Positions 3,368 through 64,000 of a stretch of 64,000 bases of DNA are shown piece by piece (the stretch's first letter is position 1; each line of letters starts with the position of its first letter). The DNA lies in the NCBI GenBank assembly GCA_020053375.1, contig JAGVNG010000008.1:1587-65586 (forward strand). Reading direction: 5' to 3'. A program made the translations under genes and the position numbers. The notes under the pieces were generated by a model. That model worked only from the letters and a program-made list of their open reading frames with translations, was not told where the DNA came from and searched no databases. This stretch comes from Nanobdellota archaeon (lineage in GTDB: Archaea > Nanobdellota > Nanobdellia > Pacearchaeales > GW2011-AR1).

Positions 3368-5824
3368 ATGCTGGAATTGCTTGCCCGCAGGAGGTTTTCA
3401 ATGGCTTACGACGTAATCATAGGGAGAAATGAGGCTGACAAAAAGAATTTTGGGAACAGGGGGCTGATATACATTGGAAAGGGATATGTAAGAATGGGAC
3501 AATATACTTCCCTGAGCAACAGGATCCTCATGGACATTGCAAGAAGCCATGTAGTTCTTGTGGCAGGAAAGAGAGGTTGTCTTGAAGGAGAAACGCTAAT
3601 TTTTACTGATAAAGGTTACAAGAAAATAAAAGATTTTGATAAAAAAAATGACAAAGTTTTATCATTCAATAAAGAAAAAAAAGAATTTGAATGGGAAAAT
3701 GCTGAATTGTTAGAATATCCAATAAAAGATGAAAAATTACTTCAAATAGAATTAAAAGATGGAAGGATAATTAATCTGACAAAAGAACATCCTTTAATGT
3801 CTTCTTATGGGAAATATGTTTATTATAGAAGGGCTTGTGATTTAAAAGTGAATGAAAAAATTGTTTTGCCCACATATTTACCAGAGGTAGAAGATGAGAG
3901 GGAAAGTTTGCAAATTGCAAGGCTTTTGGGTTATATATTAGCAGATGGAAACATTTTTATTCAAAAAGGAAAATTCAAAGACGGAAGAGGAAAATGGTAT
4001 AATGGGACAAAAGCAAGAATAAGGATAAATAATGATTGTGATGAGGTCCTATCACAAGCTAAGGAGGATTTTGAAAAAGAGTTTGGCATAATTGCAAAAA
4101 GAAAAAAAAGAAAAGATTGTAATTGTGAAATTGTGGAAACAAAACATCAAAAAATAGTAAACAAATTTTTAGAATTAGGAATTCCATCGGGAAATAAATC
4201 AGCAATTATAAGAATTCCAAAAATAGTTTTTGAGAGTTCAAATAAATTTAAAGCGAATTTTATATCTGCATTATTTGATTGTGATGGATATATTAATTCA
4301 TCGGGGAGATATATAGATTATTCCTCAAAATCAAAGAAATTTTTGGAAGATTTACAAGTATTATTAACTCACTTTAAGATAGAATCTGTTATAAGAGTAA
4401 AAAATGCTAAATGTAATGAAAAAATATTTGAGAATTATAGATTATTTATTACAGATAATAATTCTGTAGAAAATTTTAAAGAAATAGGTTTTACAAGCAG
4501 ATTCAAGCAAGAGCGGTTAGATAAGCATAAGTCAAATAAAACAAAAAGAAGAAAAACCCATTATATTAAAGAATCTCTTGTCTGTGTTAAAATTAGTTCT
4601 ATTAAGGAATTAAAGGGCATAGATAAAGTATATGATTTATCTGTGGATAAAAATCACTCATTTATAGCCAATGGGATTATATCTCATAATTCAGGAAAAT
4701 CATATACTCTTGGAGTAATCGCAGAGGAACTTTCAAATCTTCCAAAAGAAGCAAGCCAGAATATAGCATCGCTTATATTTGACACGATGGGAATATACTG
4801 GACAACAAAATACAAGAACGAAAAAGACAAGGGGCTTCTCCAAGAATGGGGATTGAAATCAAAAAACCTTAATGTAAAAATTTTTGTTCCATTTGGGCAT
4901 TTTGACAGGTATCTTGAAAAAGGGATTCCTGTTGATGAAAGGCTTGCCTTGGATATAAATGAACTGAATGCGGAGGATTGGATAATTACCTTTGGTTTGG
5001 ATATAGTAAGTCCAGTTGCAGTAATAATAGAAAGGGCAATAACAAAGCTGAAAAAAGGTAAAGATTATGATATAGATGAGCTGGTTTCGGAGATAGACAA
5101 GGATGAAAAAACTCCGAGGGAAACAAAAAATGCAGCAATAGGATTGTTTGAGGCTGCAAAAACATGGGGAATATTTGCGGGAAAAGACGAGGAGCCAACC
5201 CAAGTCAAGGATTTGGTATACGCTGGCGGAACCGTTGTTCTTGATTTAAGCGTTTATAATTCAATAGGAGCATTCAATGTAAGGGCTCTTGCAATAAGCC
5301 TGATATCCCGTAAGATATTCAACTCAAGAATGGACCAAAGGAAAGATGAAGAGGTTGAGTCCGTGGCAAGAGGGTTGGATTATTCATCAAAAATTGAAAA
5401 AAAGGAAAATCCATTGGTTTGGATGTTTATAGATGAGGCGCATGAATTCTTGCCTCTTGGCTCAAAGACAATTGCAACGGATGCGCTTGTCCAGCTGTTG
5501 AGGGAAGGAAGACAGCCCGGTATTTCATTGGTTCTTGCAACTCAGCAGCCAGGACAGATTCACAGAGATGTTATGACACAGTCAGACATAGTAATAGCAC
5601 ACAGAGTAACTTCCGAGCCGGATGTTCAGGCATTAAATTATATAATGCAAAGTTATTTAATAGAAAATGTCAAAAAGTATATGGACGACCTTCCAACATT
5701 AAAGGGCTCAGCGATTCTCCTTGACGACAATTCAGAGAGAATATATTCAATAAGAATGCGCCCAAGATTTACATGGCATGGTGGAGAAGCGCCTACGGCA
5801 ATAAGCGAGGAGAAGAAATTATAA
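3368..5824 (+). CDS. HerA/FtsK-like (DUF87-type) P-loop ATPase interrupted by an intein; probable true start at 3401 (MAYDV)
   Basis: Exteins join to VLVAGKRG|SGKSYTLGVIAEE (Walker A), FIDEAHEF (Walker B), LVLATQQPGQIHRDVMTQSDIVIAHRVTS; GGAGG Shine-Dalgarno-like 8 nt before the ATG at 3401; the ORF-track N-terminal extension is the conserved leader. Confidence 0.7.
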   Translation: MLELLARRRFSMAYDVIIGRNEADKKNFGNRGLIYIGKGYVRMGQYTSLSNRILMDIARSHVVLVAGKRGCLEGETLIFTDKGYKKIKDFDKKNDKVLSFNKEKKEFEWENAELLEYPIKDEKLLQIELKDGRIINLTKEHPLMSSYGKYVYYRRACDLKVNEKIVLPTYLPEVEDERESLQIARLLGYILADGNIFIQKGKFKDGRGKWYNGTKARIRINNDCDEVLSQAKEDFEKEFGIIAKRKKRKDCNCEIVETKHQKIVNKFLELGIPSGNKSAIIRIPKIVFESSNKFKANFISALFDCDGYINSSGRYIDYSSKSKKFLEDLQVLLTHFKIESVIRVKNAKCNEKIFENYRLFITDNNSVENFKEIGFTSRFKQERLDKHKSNKTKRRKTHYIKESLVCVKISSIKELKGIDKVYDLSVDKNHSFIANGIISHNSGKSYTLGVIAEELSNLPKEASQNIASLIFDTMGIYWTTKYKNEKDKGLLQEWGLKSKNLNVKIFVPFGHFDRYLEKGIPVDERLALDINELNAEDWIITFGLDIVSPVAVIIERAITKLKKGKDYDIDELVSEIDKDEKTPRETKNAAIGLFEAAKTWGIFAGKDEEPTQVKDLVYAGGTVVLDLSVYNSIGAFNVRALAISLISRKIFNSRMDQRKDEEVESVARGLDYSSKIEKKENPLVWMFIDEAHEFLPLGSKTIATDALVQLLREGRQPGISLVLATQQPGQIHRDVMTQSDIVIAHRVTSEPDVQALNYIMQSYLIENVKKYMDDLPTLKGSAILLDDNSERIYSIRMRPRFTWHGGEAPTAISEEKKL
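3578..4690 (+). mobile_element. intein (371 aa) with LAGLIDADG homing endonuclease domain, inserted in the Walker A motif of the host ATPase
   Basis: Starts with Cys (CLEGETLIF...), ends ...GIISHN followed by Ser; two LAGLIDADG motifs (LLGYILADGNIF, ISALFDCDGYI); removal restores GKRGSGKS. Confidence 0.8.
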
Positions 5825-26896: not shown

Positions 26897-27014
26897 TGGC
26901 CCCGATGGGATTTGAACCCACGACACCTGGATATCTCCTCGTTTGTACAAAGAGGTACAGAACCTAAGTCCTGCGATAAGAGTCCAGTGCTCTACCAGAC
27001 TGAGCTACGGAGCC
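26897..27014 (-). tRNA. tRNA-Lys(CTT) with a 44-nt intron at the canonical 37/38 position
   Basis: GGCTCCG-TA-GCTC-AGTCTGGTA-GAGC-A-CTGGA-CTCTTA[intron]A-TCCAG-GTGTC-GTGGG-TTCAAAT-CCCAT-CGGGGCC-A; acceptor and T stems pair (one G.U each). Confidence 0.75.
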
Positions 27015-36003: not shown

Positions 36004-36056
36004 TAAAAATGGTGCTATTTTGTGTTTAAAAACAAATCTGTATCAGAAAATATCTT

Positions 36057-36320
36057 TTATTTCAGCTTCTTAAAATTAGCCTCTATTTTGTCAAGCTCTT
36101 TTGTAAGATGGGATATAGCTTCAGCGATTGCTTTTTTTGCCGTTTTCCCTTTTGTCTTAACAATAAGAATAGGATTTTCGCTTGCGTGCCCTCTCTTCCA
36201 TGCAGCAAGTGTGACTGCAGTGTCCTTATTGAGATATACTCTCAATATTTCGGCCATGGTCAAATTGTCAAATTCTATTTCAACTTCTTCCTTAGTGTCT
36301 TTAAGAATATTTAACTCCAT
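36057..36320 (-). CDS. rpoL: DNA-directed RNA polymerase subunit L (Rpo11)
   Basis: MELNILKDTKEEVEIEFDNLTMAEILRVYLNKD...ILIVKTKG resembles the Rpo11/RpoL dimerisation fold. Confidence 0.65.
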   Translation of the reverse strand: MELNILKDTKEEVEIEFDNLTMAEILRVYLNKDTAVTLAAWKRGHASENPILIVKTKGKTAKKAIAEAISHLTKELDKIEANFKKLK

Positions 36321-36389
36321 GCATGAAAATCACAATTTCAGTTTATAAAACTTTCCGACAGAAAGTTTTGCTTAAAAAAACCGCGGTTT

Positions 36390-37100
36390 TTACTTCTTAA
36401 AAATCAACTTTCTGATTTCCTCTTCAGATAAATCCTTGTCGGCTTTTTTCTTCACTTCTTTTAAATCAAAAATTGTCAGCTCGTCTGGATTCTTTTTGCC
36501 TAGGTCAAGAAAGGGTGTAGGAACAAAATCATGAACAGAATTCTTGGTATTTTCCATGGTCATCTTTGAAGTTTCTTTTAATAGATTAATCTCTAGATAG
36601 CCTTGAATTTTGTTGAGAAGGTAATTATTCTCTGGCAGGATTCCTTCCTCCGCCATCTTTATCGCAGCCTCTGCCTCCCCTATTGCATCCGCCATCTGCT
36701 TCTGCGTGACATGCTTTGATCTTCTCGCTCTCATTATTATCCAATGAAAGTTATCTACTAAATCGGGTCTTGGCTTTGCTTCCTGCTTAATTTTTTCAGC
36801 ATAGTTTTTGTCAACCATTGCCCTAAGGCTTTTCTCCTGCCTGATCAGATAGTCGCTCTTTTCAACTTTTCGTTCATTTAAATTCTTTAGTCCAGACATT
36901 CTTGAAAGCCTCTCATAAGTTGTTGGCTTTCTCTCTATTTCCTTTAGCTGAAATGCAGTTGGCCTTCTTAATATGGGAAAATCCGAGAAAGCAGAACAGC
37001 CTTCGCATATCTTAACCAATCCTTCTTTTGTTATTGCGTCAAACAGTTGGGCATTTTTATCAGAAATCCCGCACTTAAAACATTCAGCCATAACAGTCAA
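36390..37100 (-). CDS. zinc-ribbon plus XRE-type HTH protein (MBF1-like)
   Basis: N-terminal CFKC...CEGC ribbon; HTH VTQKQMADAIGEAEAAIKMAE. Confidence 0.5.
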   Translation of the reverse strand: MTVMAECFKCGISDKNAQLFDAITKEGLVKICEGCSAFSDFPILRRPTAFQLKEIERKPTTYERLSRMSGLKNLNERKVEKSDYLIRQEKSLRAMVDKNYAEKIKQEAKPRPDLVDNFHWIIMRARRSKHVTQKQMADAIGEAEAAIKMAEEGILPENNYLLNKIQGYLEINLLKETSKMTMENTKNSVHDFVPTPFLDLGKKNPDELTIFDLKEVKKKADKDLSEEEIRKLIFKK

Positions 37101-56517: not shown

Positions 56518-56628
56518 GAGCCTGTAGTTCAGCCTGGTTAGAACGTCGCTCTGATATAATGCTCAAAGAAGCAGTTCCAAGAGAATTTAGAAAGGCGAAG
56601 GTCCACAGTTCAAATCTGTGCAGGCTCA
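56518..56628 (+). tRNA. tRNA-Ile(GAT) with a ~36-nt intron at the canonical position
   Basis: GAGCCTG-TA-GTTC-AGCCTGGTTA-GAAC-G-TCGCT-CTGATA[intron]A-GGCGA-AGGTC-CACAG-TTCAAAT-CTGTG-CAGGCTC-A. Confidence 0.7.
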
Positions 56629-60231: not shown

Positions 60232-61959
60232 ATGAAGTATTCAAAGCTCTGTGAGTTATACGACAATATTTCAGGAACACCAAAGCGTCTTGAAAAGACA
60301 GACATACTTGCGAAATTCCTGAAAGAGCTTGCGGATTCGGACAAGGAAGCATTATATCTTCTTCTGGGAGAAATTTATGCCGATTATGATGAAAAGAGAA
60401 TTGGCATAAGCAATCAGCTAGTGATTAAGGCAATTGCAAAATCAACAGGGACTCCCAATGAAAAAGTGGTTCATGAATGGAAGGTAATCGGGGACCTTGG
60501 AAAAGTTGCTGAAAAACTTGTTTCTAAGAAAAAGCAATCAACTCTTTCATCGCATTCCGAAGTTACTGTCCAAAAGGTTCTTGAGAATTTGAGAAAACTG
60601 CCTGACTTAGAAGGTAAGGGAACAGTGGAAAAGAAAATCTCTCTGATAACCGAACTCCTGTCGTCTGCCTCGCCAAAAGAGGCATTGTACATAATTAGAA
60701 CACTTCTTTCTGACTTGAGAATAGGAATAAAGGAAAGCACCATCAGAGACGCGCTCGCGAAAGCATTTTTCAAGGAAAGTAAAAAAGACGCAATAAGAGA
60801 AATACAGGATGCCATAGACAAATCAAATGACATAGTTGAAGTTTTTGAGATGACTAAAAAAGGAAAGCTAAAGGACTTAAAGAAAGTGCACCTTGAAATT
60901 GGGAAACCCATCAAAGTCATGCTTGCCCAAAAAGCAAAAAACATCAAAGAAGCTTTTGAGGCTGTTGGAAAGCCATGCGCAATTGAATACAAGTATGACG
61001 GATTCAGAATGCTGATTCACAAGAAGGGCAATGAGGTAATCCTATTCACCAGAAGACTGGAAAATGTAACAAAGCAGTTTCCAGAGGTTATTGATTATGT
61101 AAAAAAATATGCCCGGGGAGATTCATTTATTCTTGATTCAGAGGCAGTTGGCTTTAACAGGCAAACAAAACAATACACTTCTTTCCAGAACATAAGCCAG
61201 AGAATAAGAAGAAAATATGATATAGAAAAACTGCAAGACGAGCTTCCAGTAGAGGTAAATGTTTTTGACATTCTTTATTATAATGGTGAGGCTCTTCTTG
61301 ACAAGCCTTTTAAGGAAAGAACAGAATTAATTAGGAAGATAGTGAAAAGTTCTCCTTACAAAATAATTCATGCAAAGCAGATAATAACCTCTGATGAAAA
61401 AAAAGCTAATGAGTTCTACAAGCAGGCATTAAAAGATAACCAAGAGGGAGTTATGTTCAAGAATCTCACTGCTATTTACCAGCCAGGAAAAAGAGTTGGA
61501 CATATGCTTAAAATAAAACCCGAAGGCAGAGACTTGGATTTGGTTATTACAGGAGCAGAATATGGAACAGGAAAGCGTTCAGGATGGTTTTCAAGTTTCA
61601 TCTTGTCATGCAAGGATGAAAAAACAGGAAAATATCTTGAGATAGGAAAAATGGGAACAGGGGTGAAGGAAAAATCCACAGCGCAGTCTGGGATAGGAAT
61701 ATCATTTAATGAACTTACTGAAAAACTCAAGCCATTAATCACAAAAGAGTCTGGAAAGACGGTTGAAATAAAACCAAAAATAGTTGTTGCAATAACATAT
61801 CAGGAAATCCAGCCTTCTCCAAATTACAATTCAGGCTTTGCATTGAGATTCCCCCGGTTCACTGCATTGCGTCCAGATAAAAGTCCTAGTGACGCCAATA
61901 CATTAGATAACGTCAAGAAGGATTTTGGAAGGCAGAAAAGAAACTGGCGATATGGCTAA
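60232..61959 (+). CDS. lig: ATP-dependent DNA ligase
   Basis: KYDGFRM (KxDG adenylation motif), EGVMFK, DLVITGAEYG. Confidence 0.85.
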   Translation: MKYSKLCELYDNISGTPKRLEKTDILAKFLKELADSDKEALYLLLGEIYADYDEKRIGISNQLVIKAIAKSTGTPNEKVVHEWKVIGDLGKVAEKLVSKKKQSTLSSHSEVTVQKVLENLRKLPDLEGKGTVEKKISLITELLSSASPKEALYIIRTLLSDLRIGIKESTIRDALAKAFFKESKKDAIREIQDAIDKSNDIVEVFEMTKKGKLKDLKKVHLEIGKPIKVMLAQKAKNIKEAFEAVGKPCAIEYKYDGFRMLIHKKGNEVILFTRRLENVTKQFPEVIDYVKKYARGDSFILDSEAVGFNRQTKQYTSFQNISQRIRRKYDIEKLQDELPVEVNVFDILYYNGEALLDKPFKERTELIRKIVKSSPYKIIHAKQIITSDEKKANEFYKQALKDNQEGVMFKNLTAIYQPGKRVGHMLKIKPEGRDLDLVITGAEYGTGKRSGWFSSFILSCKDEKTGKYLEIGKMGTGVKEKSTAQSGIGISFNELTEKLKPLITKESGKTVEIKPKIVVAITYQEIQPSPNYNSGFALRFPRFTALRPDKSPSDANTLDNVKKDFGRQKRNWRYG

Positions 61960-62485
61960 TATTAAACCTGTCAAAATAATCCACAAAGGTTCCATCTTCG
62001 TCTAATATATTTCCTTTATGTTTGATAACCCCTTCAAAATAACGCTTATCTTTGAGCCATCCATACATTAATTCGTCTCCAGCATTCTTCGGAACAAGGG
62101 GTACGTCTCTTTCATCAATCCATAAAGGTGTTCCTTCATTGCCTTCCCCCTTTAGTTCGCCACTATAATTTTTGGCACTAAAAACATATACCAAAAAATC
62201 CGTAGGATTTTTCCAATTGGGAAAAATTCTTTCTTTATTGTCAAATAAAATAACTCCTCTTAGTTTAGGCTTAATCAAAATCAAACCTGTTTCCTCATTT
62301 GTTTCTCTTATTGCCGATTCCAATCTTCCATCAAGGTTATCCAAACCTTTTTCGTTACTATCTAATTTTCCACCAGGCAAGGCATACAACCCTGAATTAG
62401 GGTCATTTTCCCTTACTTTCTTTTTCATCATCAAAACTTTGTCTTCAGCAGAGAGGTAGGAAATTGTTGCATATTTCATTTCCAC
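61913..62485 (-). CDS. NUDIX hydrolase
   Basis: GGKLDSNEKGLDNLDGRLESAIRETNEETGL (Nudix box GX5EX7REUXEEXGU). Confidence 0.75.
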   Translation of the reverse strand: MEMKYATISYLSAEDKVLMMKKKVRENDPNSGLYALPGGKLDSNEKGLDNLDGRLESAIRETNEETGLILIKPKLRGVILFDNKERIFPNWKNPTDFLVYVFSAKNYSGELKGEGNEGTPLWIDERDVPLVPKNAGDELMYGWLKDKRYFEGVIKHKGNILDEDGTFVDYFDRFNISHIASFFSAFQNPS

Positions 62486-62500
62486 AAATAAAAACAGGGC

Positions 62501-63520
62501 TTAATAAAAATTTGTATACTTCTGTTCAACTTTTTTCCTTAATTTAAAAGCATTAGCCCACTTTGCATAAGCGTTCCATCCTTGGAGGATTTCCGCCATT
62601 TTACTGCCTGATATTTTTCCTCGATTAAATTTTCCCATTTTTCTTTCAATATTTTTTATATTCTTTTTTCTTAATAATTTATAATAATAGAAATTCCTGA
62701 AACCGACAAAATCAATTCCTCTTGATAATAAGATAATTCTTGACTTATCTGGGTGAAGTTCCAGTTTTAATTTTTCTTCTAAGAATTGACTTATTCGTTC
62801 TTTCAAATTTTCTAATTGTTCTTTTGAATTGTGCAAAATAACAAAATCATCAACATATCTTATGTAATGCTTAGCTTTAAGCAAGTGTTTGACAAAATAG
62901 TCAAGTTCATTAAGATAAACATTTGCAAAAAATTGGGATGTTAAATTCCCTAAGGGCATTCCCTTTCCAGAGGGATTGTCTGAAACATTATTATTCAAAA
63001 TTCTTTTAATAAGCCAGATTACTCCTTCATCTTTTATCCTTCTTTTTATTATATTAAGAAGGATTTTATGATTAACTTCCTGAAAATAATGCTTTATGTC
63101 TGCTTTAAGGCAATATCCAGAAGAAGCATGGTTTTTGGTAACTTTTCTTCTAAATCTTTCAAATCGCTTCAAAGCAAATAAATTTCCTCTGCCTTTTCTG
63201 TTTGCGCATGAATCATAGATGAATGTCCTATCAAAAATAGGCTCAATAACCCTTACCAATGCATGATGAACAACCCTATCTTTAAAATTAGATTTTGAGA
63301 TTTTTCTCGTTTTTGGGTCTCTCAAAATGAATGTTATCAGAGATTTTGGTTTATAATAAAAGTATTTCAGTTCATAGTGCAGTGCTTTTAAATTATCCCT
63401 CAAATTTTTTTCAAATTCAATGACGTAATCTTTTTTTGTTTTGCTCTTTCTTGCCTTTTGCCATGCAAGAATTAAATTTCTCATTGAATAAATTTTAGGA
63501 TAAAGATTATCAGTTTCCAT
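62501..63520 (-). CDS. diversity-generating retroelement (DGR) reverse transcriptase
   Basis: RT motifs: RKISKSNFKDRVVHHAL (1/2), CLKADIKHYF (3), GMPLGNLTSQFFANVYLNELD (4; LGNLTSQ is the DGR-type [ILV]GxxxSQ rather than QGxxxSP), YIRYVDDFVIL (5, YxDD), LELHPDKSRII (6/7), IDFVGF; compact 339 aa; TR immediately upstream. Confidence 0.85.
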   Translation of the reverse strand: METDNLYPKIYSMRNLILAWQKARKSKTKKDYVIEFEKNLRDNLKALHYELKYFYYKPKSLITFILRDPKTRKISKSNFKDRVVHHALVRVIEPIFDRTFIYDSCANRKGRGNLFALKRFERFRRKVTKNHASSGYCLKADIKHYFQEVNHKILLNIIKRRIKDEGVIWLIKRILNNNVSDNPSGKGMPLGNLTSQFFANVYLNELDYFVKHLLKAKHYIRYVDDFVILHNSKEQLENLKERISQFLEEKLKLELHPDKSRIILLSRGIDFVGFRNFYYYKLLRKKNIKNIERKMGKFNRGKISGSKMAEILQGWNAYAKWANAFKLRKKVEQKYTNFY

Positions 63521-63550
63521 ATTAGCATCAAAGTCCTGAAAATATGGGCT

Positions 63551-63676
63551 ATTCCGAGGTCAGAATTCCTGTTGGAAGGATTCCTGTTGCAGTTGAGGTT
63601 AGCCCTGTCAGAATTGGCATTGAACCTGGCAACTTTTAGCCAATTTACCAATTCAAAAACTTTAAAAGTTTTCACC
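63551..63676 (-). repeat. DGR template repeat (TR). Only 63551-63627 can be aligned inside the window; the upstream boundary is inferred
   Basis: 63554-63627 aligns to VR 63927-64000 with 14 mismatches, all at TR adenines on the minus strand; the in-frame translation is Asn(AAC/AAT)-rich (FNANSDRANLNCNRNPSNRN). Confidence 0.8.
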
Positions 63677-63698
63677 GAATCTGTCCGCGGACAGATTC
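63677..63698. promoter_or_regulatory. perfect 22-nt palindrome GAATCTGTCCGCGGACAGATTC between the target-gene stop and the TR
   Basis: Self-complementary over its full length; sits at the likely 5' boundary of the TR transcript. Confidence 0.4.
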
Positions 63699-63892
63699 TG
63701 TATTTTATGACTTAAAATAAATCTAAATAATGTTCTAGTAAATTGACGTGTAGTCCATATTTATCTCTCTTGCTTCAGCATTTTTCAATTGCTCATTTTA
63801 AAAGATGCTTAAAAGACACTTTCAGGACAAACCATCAAATGAATGGATGTTTAAAAATTTTGTGTTTGTTCTTATAAATGTTTCCAGCGAGC

Positions 63893-64000
63893 CTATCCTC
63901 GCTTACCCTCCATAACGCCAAAAACCCCGAGGCCAGAATCCCAGTCGGAAGGATCCCTGCTGCAGTCGAGGCCAGCCCTGCCAGAACAGGCATCGAACCC
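63893..64000 (-). CDS. 3' end of the DGR target gene (truncated by the window edge) containing the variable repeat (VR 63924-64000)
   Basis: Minus-strand frame reads ...GFDACSGRAGLDCSRDPSDWDSGLGVFGVMEGKRG-stop (TAG at 63893-63895), codon-for-codon parallel to the TR with N->D/C/G/S substitutions. Confidence 0.75.
   Translation of the reverse strand, partial: GFDACSGRAGLDCSRDPSDWDSGLGVFGVMEGKRG

Follow-up and report, generated by a model that had tools for sequence, protein, structure and literature searches.

The perfect 22-nt palindrome GAATCTGTCCGCGGACAGATTC, which lies at positions 63677–63698 in the spacer of a minus-strand DGR, is a stem-loop of a known but uncharacterised RNA family, RT-16. 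RT-16 is thereby assigned to DGRs, and the long-range helices, the promoter and the retron-like, Avd-free topology described below are new as well. All positions refer to the window, that is, the whole 64-kb stretch of DNA that was analysed. The spacer probably unites a homing hairpin, a promoter and a 5' RNA domain built around RT-16, and helices formed with the sequence beyond the template repeat (TR) bracket this repeat; for the different structures we infer roles in binding of the reverse transcriptase (RT), in priming and in stopping of synthesis. These findings tie RT-16 to the TR of DPANN DGRs, supply beyond the TR the pairing partners that had been missing, and provide a testable RNA architecture. 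Among the organisms richest in DGRs are the DPANN archaea, whose genomes are tiny. A cassette of target, TR and RT, with one protein and an RNA of about 300 nt, would also recommend itself as a minimal scaffold for targeted mutagenesis in vivo.

The DGR occupies the last 1.5 kb of the window, and all its parts are read on the minus strand. The RT (62501–63520; 339 amino acids) matches Pfam RVT_1; among solved structures its best match is the Bordetella phage bRT (PDB 8ub7, E 8e-44, with a full-length alignment), and the LGNLTSQ motif is visible in its translation; these features place it in the DGR clade. More than 8000 relatives of this RT exist, among them proteins of Nanoarchaeota, Pacearchaeota and Woesearchaeota. 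The TR (63552–63632) aligns over 76 nt with the variable repeat (VR; 63924–64000), which forms the 3' end of the target ORF. Fifteen of the 23 TR adenines are changed, and there is not a single mismatch at another base. The TR has in-frame AAY codons when read in the frame of the VR, and the target ORF ends at a TAG stop codon (63893–63895). Since the window end cuts the VR, and with it the target ORF, the 5' limit of the TR is approximate (about 63627–63632). A search of the window found no further VR of this TR. With an A-only TR/VR pair and an RT of the DGR clade, the region is indeed a DGR spacer, as had been predicted. The gap between TR and RT measures about 30 nt. Neighbouring genes in the window encode an eL15-like ribosomal protein, a superoxide dismutase-like protein, an ATP-dependent DNA ligase-like protein and a NUDIX protein; together with the relatives of the RT, they assign the window to a DPANN archaeon. 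For comparison, 80 related loci from DPANN genomes were collected, and 81 sequences were searched with a profile.

At their 3' ends the two repeats carry an IMH-like GGGGT (VR, 63924–63928) and an IMH*-like GGAAU (TR, 63551–63555), and the alignment displays the divergence after CCTCGG(AA/GG)T to which the original prediction had drawn attention. The unusually short IMH that it suspected is real: GGGGT against GGAAT corresponds to the TGGGGT/TGGAAT signature reported for Nanoarchaeota (Paul 2015, PMC4372165). Practically all related loci share, as a fixed difference, the AA of the TR end, GGAAU(A), and the GG of the VR end, GGGGU(A).

The hairpin AGCGAG/GAUAGG/CUCGCU (63886–63903) does hold the stop codon of the target in its loop. 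It folds at -9.8 kcal/mol (z -4.0), and one of 200 shuffled sequences is equally stable. It was thought to follow the VR immediately, but it starts 20 nt (63904–63923) after the end of the VR/TR homology at 63924. Hairpins after the VR promote DGR retrohoming (Guo 2011, PMC3240598; Paul 2015, PMC4372165), and in phages their consensus is a GC stem of 7–10 bp with a GRNA loop, located 4–34 bp after the VR (Guo 2011, PMC3240598). The spacing in the window lies within this range. In contrast, its stem has only 6 bp, four of them G-C, and its 6-nt loop GAUAGG is neither the GRNA tetraloop on a GC stem of 7–10 bp known from phages nor the GRA triloop of Nanoarchaeota; in BPP-1, enlarging the loop by 2 nt abolished function (Guo 2011, PMC3240598). 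The attribution of the hairpin to a class that promotes retrohoming holds for the family at large, as 86% of the relatives fold at -8 kcal/mol or lower in the 45 nt after the IMH, compared to 9% of random 45-mers. Forty-five of the 79 VR ends from relatives display a GAA loop, and about 10 relatives share the 3' arm GCUCGC(U), combined with variable loops. The hairpin of the window is best read as a divergent member of the DGR target-site hairpins, with uncertain activity.

The palindrome belongs to a larger element. A scan with Rfam returned a full-length match to RT-16 (RF03019) at 63631–63779, covering model positions 1–158 and scoring 62.2 bits, above the gathering threshold of 50, with an E-value of 3.5e-7 in the scan of the entire window; other Rfam families gave only sub-threshold chance matches near it. 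RT-16 is one of 19 "RT motifs" that adjoin RT genes; only RT-10 among them was linked to a DGR, and RT-16 was given no function (Weinberg et al. 2017, PMC5737381). In the later literature it appears in lists only. Among related loci, 19 of the 20 that were scanned carry the element above threshold, and a profile built from these matches detected it in 75 of 81 sequences. Rfam and nhmmer searches were preferred to simple regexes (CTACACG, CATAAAATA, GGTGAA), which picked up few loci. In all loci but one, the element lies upstream of the RT on the same strand and ends 110–140 nt before the RT start, and in relatives the A-mutated TR begins 0–10 nt after it. In the exceptional locus, L011, the module of RT-16, TR and downstream pairing segment (b', see below) is located downstream of the RT on the opposite strand, convergent with it, and retains a helix of 12 bp across the TR. 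Therefore, the module is autonomous and not merely a leader of the RT. The comparison with related DGR loci that the original prediction had proposed thus comes out in favour of conservation, both for RT-16 and for the hairpins after the IMH.

The core of the element is closed by helix P2, formed by the strands GUCAAUUUACU (63737–63747) and GGUAAAUUGGC (63639–63649); the latter ends some 7–12 nt before the TR start, a distance of 2–12 nt in relatives. Within P2 lie the palindromic stem-loop, designated P3, a highly conserved unpaired segment AAGUCAUAAAAUACA (63699–63713) with near-invariant alignment columns, and the hairpin P4, GAAAACUU-UUA-AAGUUUUU (63655–63673), which was identified by folding and at the position of which relatives have, on inspection by eye, a hairpin of variable sequence. 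The palindrome was found exactly where it had been reported; it does not mark the 5' edge of the TR, as was presumed, but lies about 45–50 nt upstream of the TR start. RNAalifold recovers both P2 and P3 from 20 short-form sequences (see below), in which 94.4% of the cells of the two helices are paired and 14 of the 20 pairs have double-sided changes. None of 500 shuffles was as good, a control that overstates independence because the sequences are related, and slid registers gave 26–54%. P2 by itself comprises 11 pairs, of which 6 have compensatory changes, with 94.9% of cells paired in 20 relatives. The pairing is specific to the RT-sense strand, as G·U is frequent and A·C rare. The folding of the 5' region of the TR-RT transcript, suggested as a check, reproduces the architecture in part: P3, P4 and a long-range helix a:a' are present in the minimum-free-energy and centroid folds of the window (z -5.0), but P2 is absent from the minimum-free-energy fold despite its support by covariation. 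These folds also contain a variable insert hairpin (63777–63809), corresponding to the distal part of Rfam P1, which differs in length and sequence among loci.

Upstream of this region, the window has an archaeal promoter-like sequence (63850–63866) with an A-rich BRE and the TATA box TTTTTAAA (63850–63857), recognised by its agreement with a consensus; the motif shared among the loci at this place is aaaaAAAAtTTTtAAA. In the window, 21 nt separate the end of the TATA box from helix a, and 22 of the 30 loci with a match have a spacing of 20–22 nt. Archaeal TATA boxes are centred near -26. With this norm, the spacing would place the transcription start at or next to helix a, and judging from the position of the BRE and TATA box the DGR RNA probably starts around 63828.

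Two long-range helices connect the 5' part of this RNA with a segment located after the TR, UAGCCCAUAUUUUCAGGAC (63533–63551), which ends 13 nt before the AUG of the RT. The 5' strand of helix a, GUCCUGAAAGUGU (63816–63828), at the presumed 5' end of the RNA, has its partner a' at 63533–63545, and the 5' strand of helix b, AUAUGGACUA (63751–63760), has its partner b' at 63542–63551. The insert hairpin is situated between the strands a and b. Strand b ends in an invariant A63751; next comes a CAC linker (63748–63750), of which C63750 and A63749 are invariant as well, A-C-A being found at this place in every aligned sequence. Helix b:b' thus joins ...GGNCUA, directly 5' of the linker, to UAGNCC..., which follows GGAA directly on the 3' side. 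These fixed motifs served as anchors of the helix, with complementarity ignored, and the regex anchors made 52 of 75 loci usable. In these 52 loci, positions 0–6 are canonical in 92–100% of cases, with exchanges such as UA (34) for CG (18), GC (26) for AU (20), GC (25) for AU (18) and GU (7), and UA (31) for AU (13). Over the first 10 positions, 88% of the pairs are canonical, compared to 71±1.5% for permuted pairs and 27–49% for slid registers. The helix of the window contains one A·C mismatch.

Helix a:a' consists of a run of 8–13 bp that involves the post-TR bases following b', the strand a being found 20–80 nt further upstream. Its partners vary by subfamily, as illustrated by GUCCUGA/UCAGGAC, CCUAGCCA/UGGCUAGG, GUCUUAGGG/CCCUAAGAC and GCCUCGACU/AGUCGAGGC. 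The register was taken as the longest ungapped complementary run; since it is chosen by complementarity, the percentage of paired positions is biased, and this bias is addressed by shuffle and permutation controls. Anchoring on the outermost RNAduplex pair was rejected, as the register was displaced by AU-rich pairing with the AUG region at the outer end. For both helices together, an ungapped alignment of 46 loci has 90.4% of its cells paired (58.2±1.2% when shuffled) and a covariation score of 0.89 (0.26 when shuffled); none of 500 shuffles was as good, a control that here too overstates independence among related sequences, and slid controls reached 22–46%. The native duplexes have an energy of -22.9 kcal/mol, against -15.2 kcal/mol for permuted pairs (p 9e-20), and every one of the 46 loci favours the long-range pairing over local folds, by about 12.7 kcal/mol.

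These helices compete in part with Rfam P1. Strand b overlaps the 3' strand of P1, and loci such as L020, L006 and L011 can form only one of the two pairings at a time. The cmscan alignment of the window shows most of P1 deleted or mispaired, and the P1 strands pair instead with the post-TR segment. Local pairing of a with b, evaluated in a crude register, amounts to 46.9% against 44.2% for shuffled sequences, which is not significant, and loci with a strong P1 may differ. Because b' and a' pair with b and a at the 5' end of the RNA, the TR is looped out between two helices: b:b' abuts its 3' end (GGAA) and P2 abuts its 5' end. In this purely computational analysis, covariation supports the helices a:a', b:b', P2 and P3 well, and their positions relative to the TR are established too.

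Could the structured region be only a 5'-UTR regulator of RT expression, in which a:a' sequesters a Shine-Dalgarno-like AGG(A) located 10–14 nt before the RT AUG, and RT-16, palindrome included, tunes translation or stability of the RT mRNA with no part in reverse transcription? In favour of this, the RNA runs on into the RT ORF without a break, and in most loci a' has a core of the type AGG, AGGA or AAGA and ends 8–14 nt before the RT start. Against this, the opposite-strand module of L011, downstream of its RT, still maintains its b:b' helix, the helices abut both TR boundaries precisely, and the sequence of a' varies widely and covaries with a. As a sole explanation we therefore consider it unlikely. 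A role as translational leader of the RT is compatible with the main explanation, the folded RNA that brackets the TR, and is possible as a second function.

The palindrome itself allows a choice between DNA and RNA. As RNA, GAATCTGTCCGCGGACAGATTC forms a stem of 9 bp with a CGCG loop at -14.5 kcal/mol (z -5.0), and none of 200 shuffled sequences is equally stable. At 22 nt it is the longest perfect palindrome of the window, but its length alone is marginal evidence, since palindromes of at least 22 nt occur in 7 of 100 first-order Markov shuffles. Eight of the 9 pairs of P3 have compensatory changes across 20 relatives, and G·U pairs are present, which argues for an RNA hairpin and not for a DNA site or a terminator. 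In the RT-16 model, the inner arm is the counterpart of the palindrome, which is flanked by the conserved AAGUCAUAAAAUACA and GGUGA. This inner arm exists in two forms. The short form, found in the window and 22 loci, has exactly 9 bp and a YNNG tetraloop, mostly UGCG; the long form, found in about 40 loci, has gA/AA and AGUA/GAA internal loops. The window, with its continuous 9-bp stem and tetraloop, has neither of these internal loops, and the AGUA/GAA module can therefore not be essential. The perfect dyad at the DNA level is incidental, as it follows from a fully paired stem with a self-complementary CGCG loop. Across relatives, the structure of P3 is conserved and not its sequence.

It is accordingly very unlikely that the palindrome acts as DNA, whether as operator of a dimeric regulator or as cruciform in retrohoming or replication, or that it is the terminator of the target gene. 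Such a role would find some justification in the perfect 22-bp dyad with its CCGCGG core and in its location between the target gene and the TR-RT unit. Yet the 20 relatives keep a stem of 9 bp with different sequences and G·U pairs, and most of their loops (UGCG, UACG, UUCG) are non-palindromic, which is not what is expected from a protein-binding DNA site, one of the functions initially envisaged. The exact 22-mer has one match among 241 million metagenome records, on an unrelated GC-rich contig, which is taken as chance. Termination, a second function that had been envisaged, is contradicted by the lack of a U-run after the stem on the minus strand, where GGUGAAAAC follows the palindrome, and by the position of the palindrome within the transcript, some 150 nt beyond the conserved TATA box. 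The third, a processing element of the TR-RT RNA, comes closest: an RNA element it is, though as part of the RT-16 domain of about 150 nt.

For the preferred reading, an RNA that folds around the TR, the following course of events can be proposed. Transcription from the BRE/TATA promoter would start near 63828 and yield an RNA with a cis-acting 5' domain, of which the RT-16 core comprises P2, the conserved single strand, P3 and P4 and ends a few nucleotides before the TR. RT-16 would recruit the RT, with P3 as putative RT-binding stem. Helix b:b' may then act as a duplex of the template:primer kind, allowing priming in cis at the 3' end of the TR from the invariant A, by analogy with retrons and with Sp A56 of BPP-1. 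P2 would halt synthesis at the 5' end of the TR, like the "cPRT Stop" duplex of BPP-1. Finally, the target-site hairpin, 20 nt after GGGGT, would promote homing of the cDNA into the VR. If priming occurs at A63751, the first bases to be copied are the two adenines for which every VR has a fixed GG, and the AA of GGAA must not be transferred to the VR. In BPP-1 the boundary of transfer lies 5–10 nt inside the initiation site, which fits with non-transfer of the first cDNA bases.

About 74% of DGRs have the accessory protein Avd, which is thus not an obligatory part. DGRs of "Architecture A" lack it, by a mechanism left unexplained, and it has been concluded that an Avd-independent mechanism must exist (Wu 2018, PMC5758913). 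About a quarter to a third of the DGRs are without Avd, and no Avd-independent mechanism has been described so far. In the 81 loci, there is no conserved accessory ORF near the RT, clustering of ORFs giving only the RT and several target families, and none of the 38 small ORFs of the window has an Avd-family Pfam match. Tentatively, and with more doubt than confidence, we suggest that in the Avd-less DGRs of DPANN archaea an RNA of retron topology might take the place of Avd, with the 2'-OH of A63751 as branch primer, P2 as stop and P3 as RT-binding stem. If true, this would link the priming of retrons and DGRs and explain mutagenic homing without Avd.

In comparison to known systems, the nearest is RT-16 itself. 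The window matches the full model, with P2, the single-stranded core and the P3 arm, and the element adjoins an RT gene. The arm of the window, however, is short, without the sarcin-ricin-like AGUA/GAA loop, and P1 is barely alignable. Neither the Rfam model nor the accompanying paper (PMC5737381) includes the TR or the post-TR partners.

The structural counterpart is the DGR RNA of BPP-1, which comprises the 3' end of avd, the TR and the Spacer (Rfam RT-10). Cryo-EM of this RNA (Handa et al., bioRxiv 10.1101/2023.10.23.563531) revealed a TR looped out between two adjacent duplexes. In the template:primer duplex, the primer strand ends in A56, the 2'-OH of which primes, followed by 2 linker nucleotides; the "cPRT Stop" duplex consists of the strand that follows the linker and of the sequence immediately before the TR. 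A UNCG stem-loop, a single-stranded "Thumb Ring" and an RT-binding stem are present as well, and the loop between template and primer holds the Avd-binding stem-loop (10.1101/2023.10.23.563531). The likeness to the window is considerable: in both RNAs two adjacent duplexes bracket the TR, the strand of the duplex at the 3' end of the TR ends in A and continues with 2–3 linker nucleotides, and the strand after the linker pairs upstream of the TR. Both have a stem-loop with a UNCG-type tetraloop, a long conserved single strand and an RT-binding stem, which for the window is a candidate role of P3, and the RTs are homologous over their full length. The connectivity, in contrast, is circularly permuted, since the structured domain of the window lies upstream of the TR, as a loop that closes P2. 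In the window, template and primer strands have open ends, and a:a' extends them at the place taken in BPP-1 by the Avd-binding loop. Furthermore, the window has neither an Avd gene nor an Avd-binding stem-loop, and about 30 nt separate TR and RT, against a spacer of 140 nt in BPP-1. No similarity of the window RNA to RT-10 was detected in sequence or with Rfam.

Retron ncRNAs have complementary ends, a 2'-OH branch primer and msr stem-loops (PMC8632793). The window shares with them the order of 5' arm, purine at the end of this arm, stem-loops, template, 3' arm and RT gene, and its arms pair as a:a' and b:b'. The differences are that the template is the TR of a DGR with a cognate VR, that the RT is of the DGR clade, that there is no long hairpin of the msd type, and that an invariant A stands at the helix end where retrons have a conserved branching G. 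That RT-16 is a retron-type msr/msd RNA making msDNA independently of diversification, as its retron-like order and complementary ends and the retron roles proposed for RT motifs (Weinberg 2017, PMC5737381) might suggest, is hardly credible, given that the template between the helices differs from the VR in the target ORF at A only, that the closest solved relative of the RT is the DGR bRT and not a retron RT, and that the candidate branch nucleotide is not G.

Finally, the DGRs of Nanoarchaeota (Paul et al. 2015, PMC4372165) resemble the window in having GGGGT/GGAAT, no recognisable Avd and an inverted repeat after the VR. A single-cell genome of the same kind (SCGC AAA011-G17) is the source of L018, one of the related loci.

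The strand a' of the helix that pairs the segment following the TR with a 5' segment of the RNA (63533-63541 in the window) contains the motif AGGA, 13 nt upstream of the RT AUG, and an AGG or AGA core is retained in this strand in the related loci. Therefore, as a possible additional role, helix a:a' could mask a ribosome-binding site. The RT is followed, likewise on the minus strand, by a NUDIX-domain gene (61913-62485) that starts 15 nt past the RT stop; in the related loci this gene is not a conserved neighbour of the RT.

In the hairpin that follows the VR, the 3' arm (GCUCGCU) is kept in sequence in about 10 loci, namely the window (63886-63891) and relatives, among them L001, L009, L037, L038, L044, L075 and L078, where it lies at the equivalent position. 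The 5' arm is variable, as is the length of the loop (4-12 nt), and several of these loci have an additional, separate GC hairpin directly 3' of the IMH. One TR can also match two or three VRs, which belong to separate target genes and lie as far as several kb away, as seen in 16 loci (L006, L012, L016, L029, L030, L031, L039, L043, L046, L054, L058, L067, L071, L073, L076 and L078); the fixed GG at the IMH is identical throughout.

Some copies of the structured RNA RT-16 occur in unusual settings. In L011, the RT-16/TR module (5036-5330, minus strand) and the RT run towards each other on opposite strands; the module lies downstream of the RT and overlaps the RT stop. This module has a TATA-like box of its own and a perfect 12-bp b:b' helix. 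No RT-16 is found upstream of the L011 RT, a tRNA gene being present there instead. A second, orphan copy in L030 (650-873), followed by neither a TR nor an RT, is probably the remnant of a decayed DGR.

In the metagenome collection, the 22-nt palindrome has a single exact match (L081, 300-321), which lies in an unrelated, GC-rich contig of 1.3 kb and is due to chance. The second-longest perfect palindrome of the window, AAAAACCGCGGTTTTT (36376-36391), sits between the convergent ORFs 36022-36348 (plus strand) and 36390-37100 (minus strand) and may be a bidirectional terminator.

Finally, two tRNA matches in the window, at 26897-27014 (minus strand) and 56518-56628 (plus strand), probably contain introns, since their spans of 118 and 111 nt far exceed that of a tRNA; tRNA introns are common in archaea.
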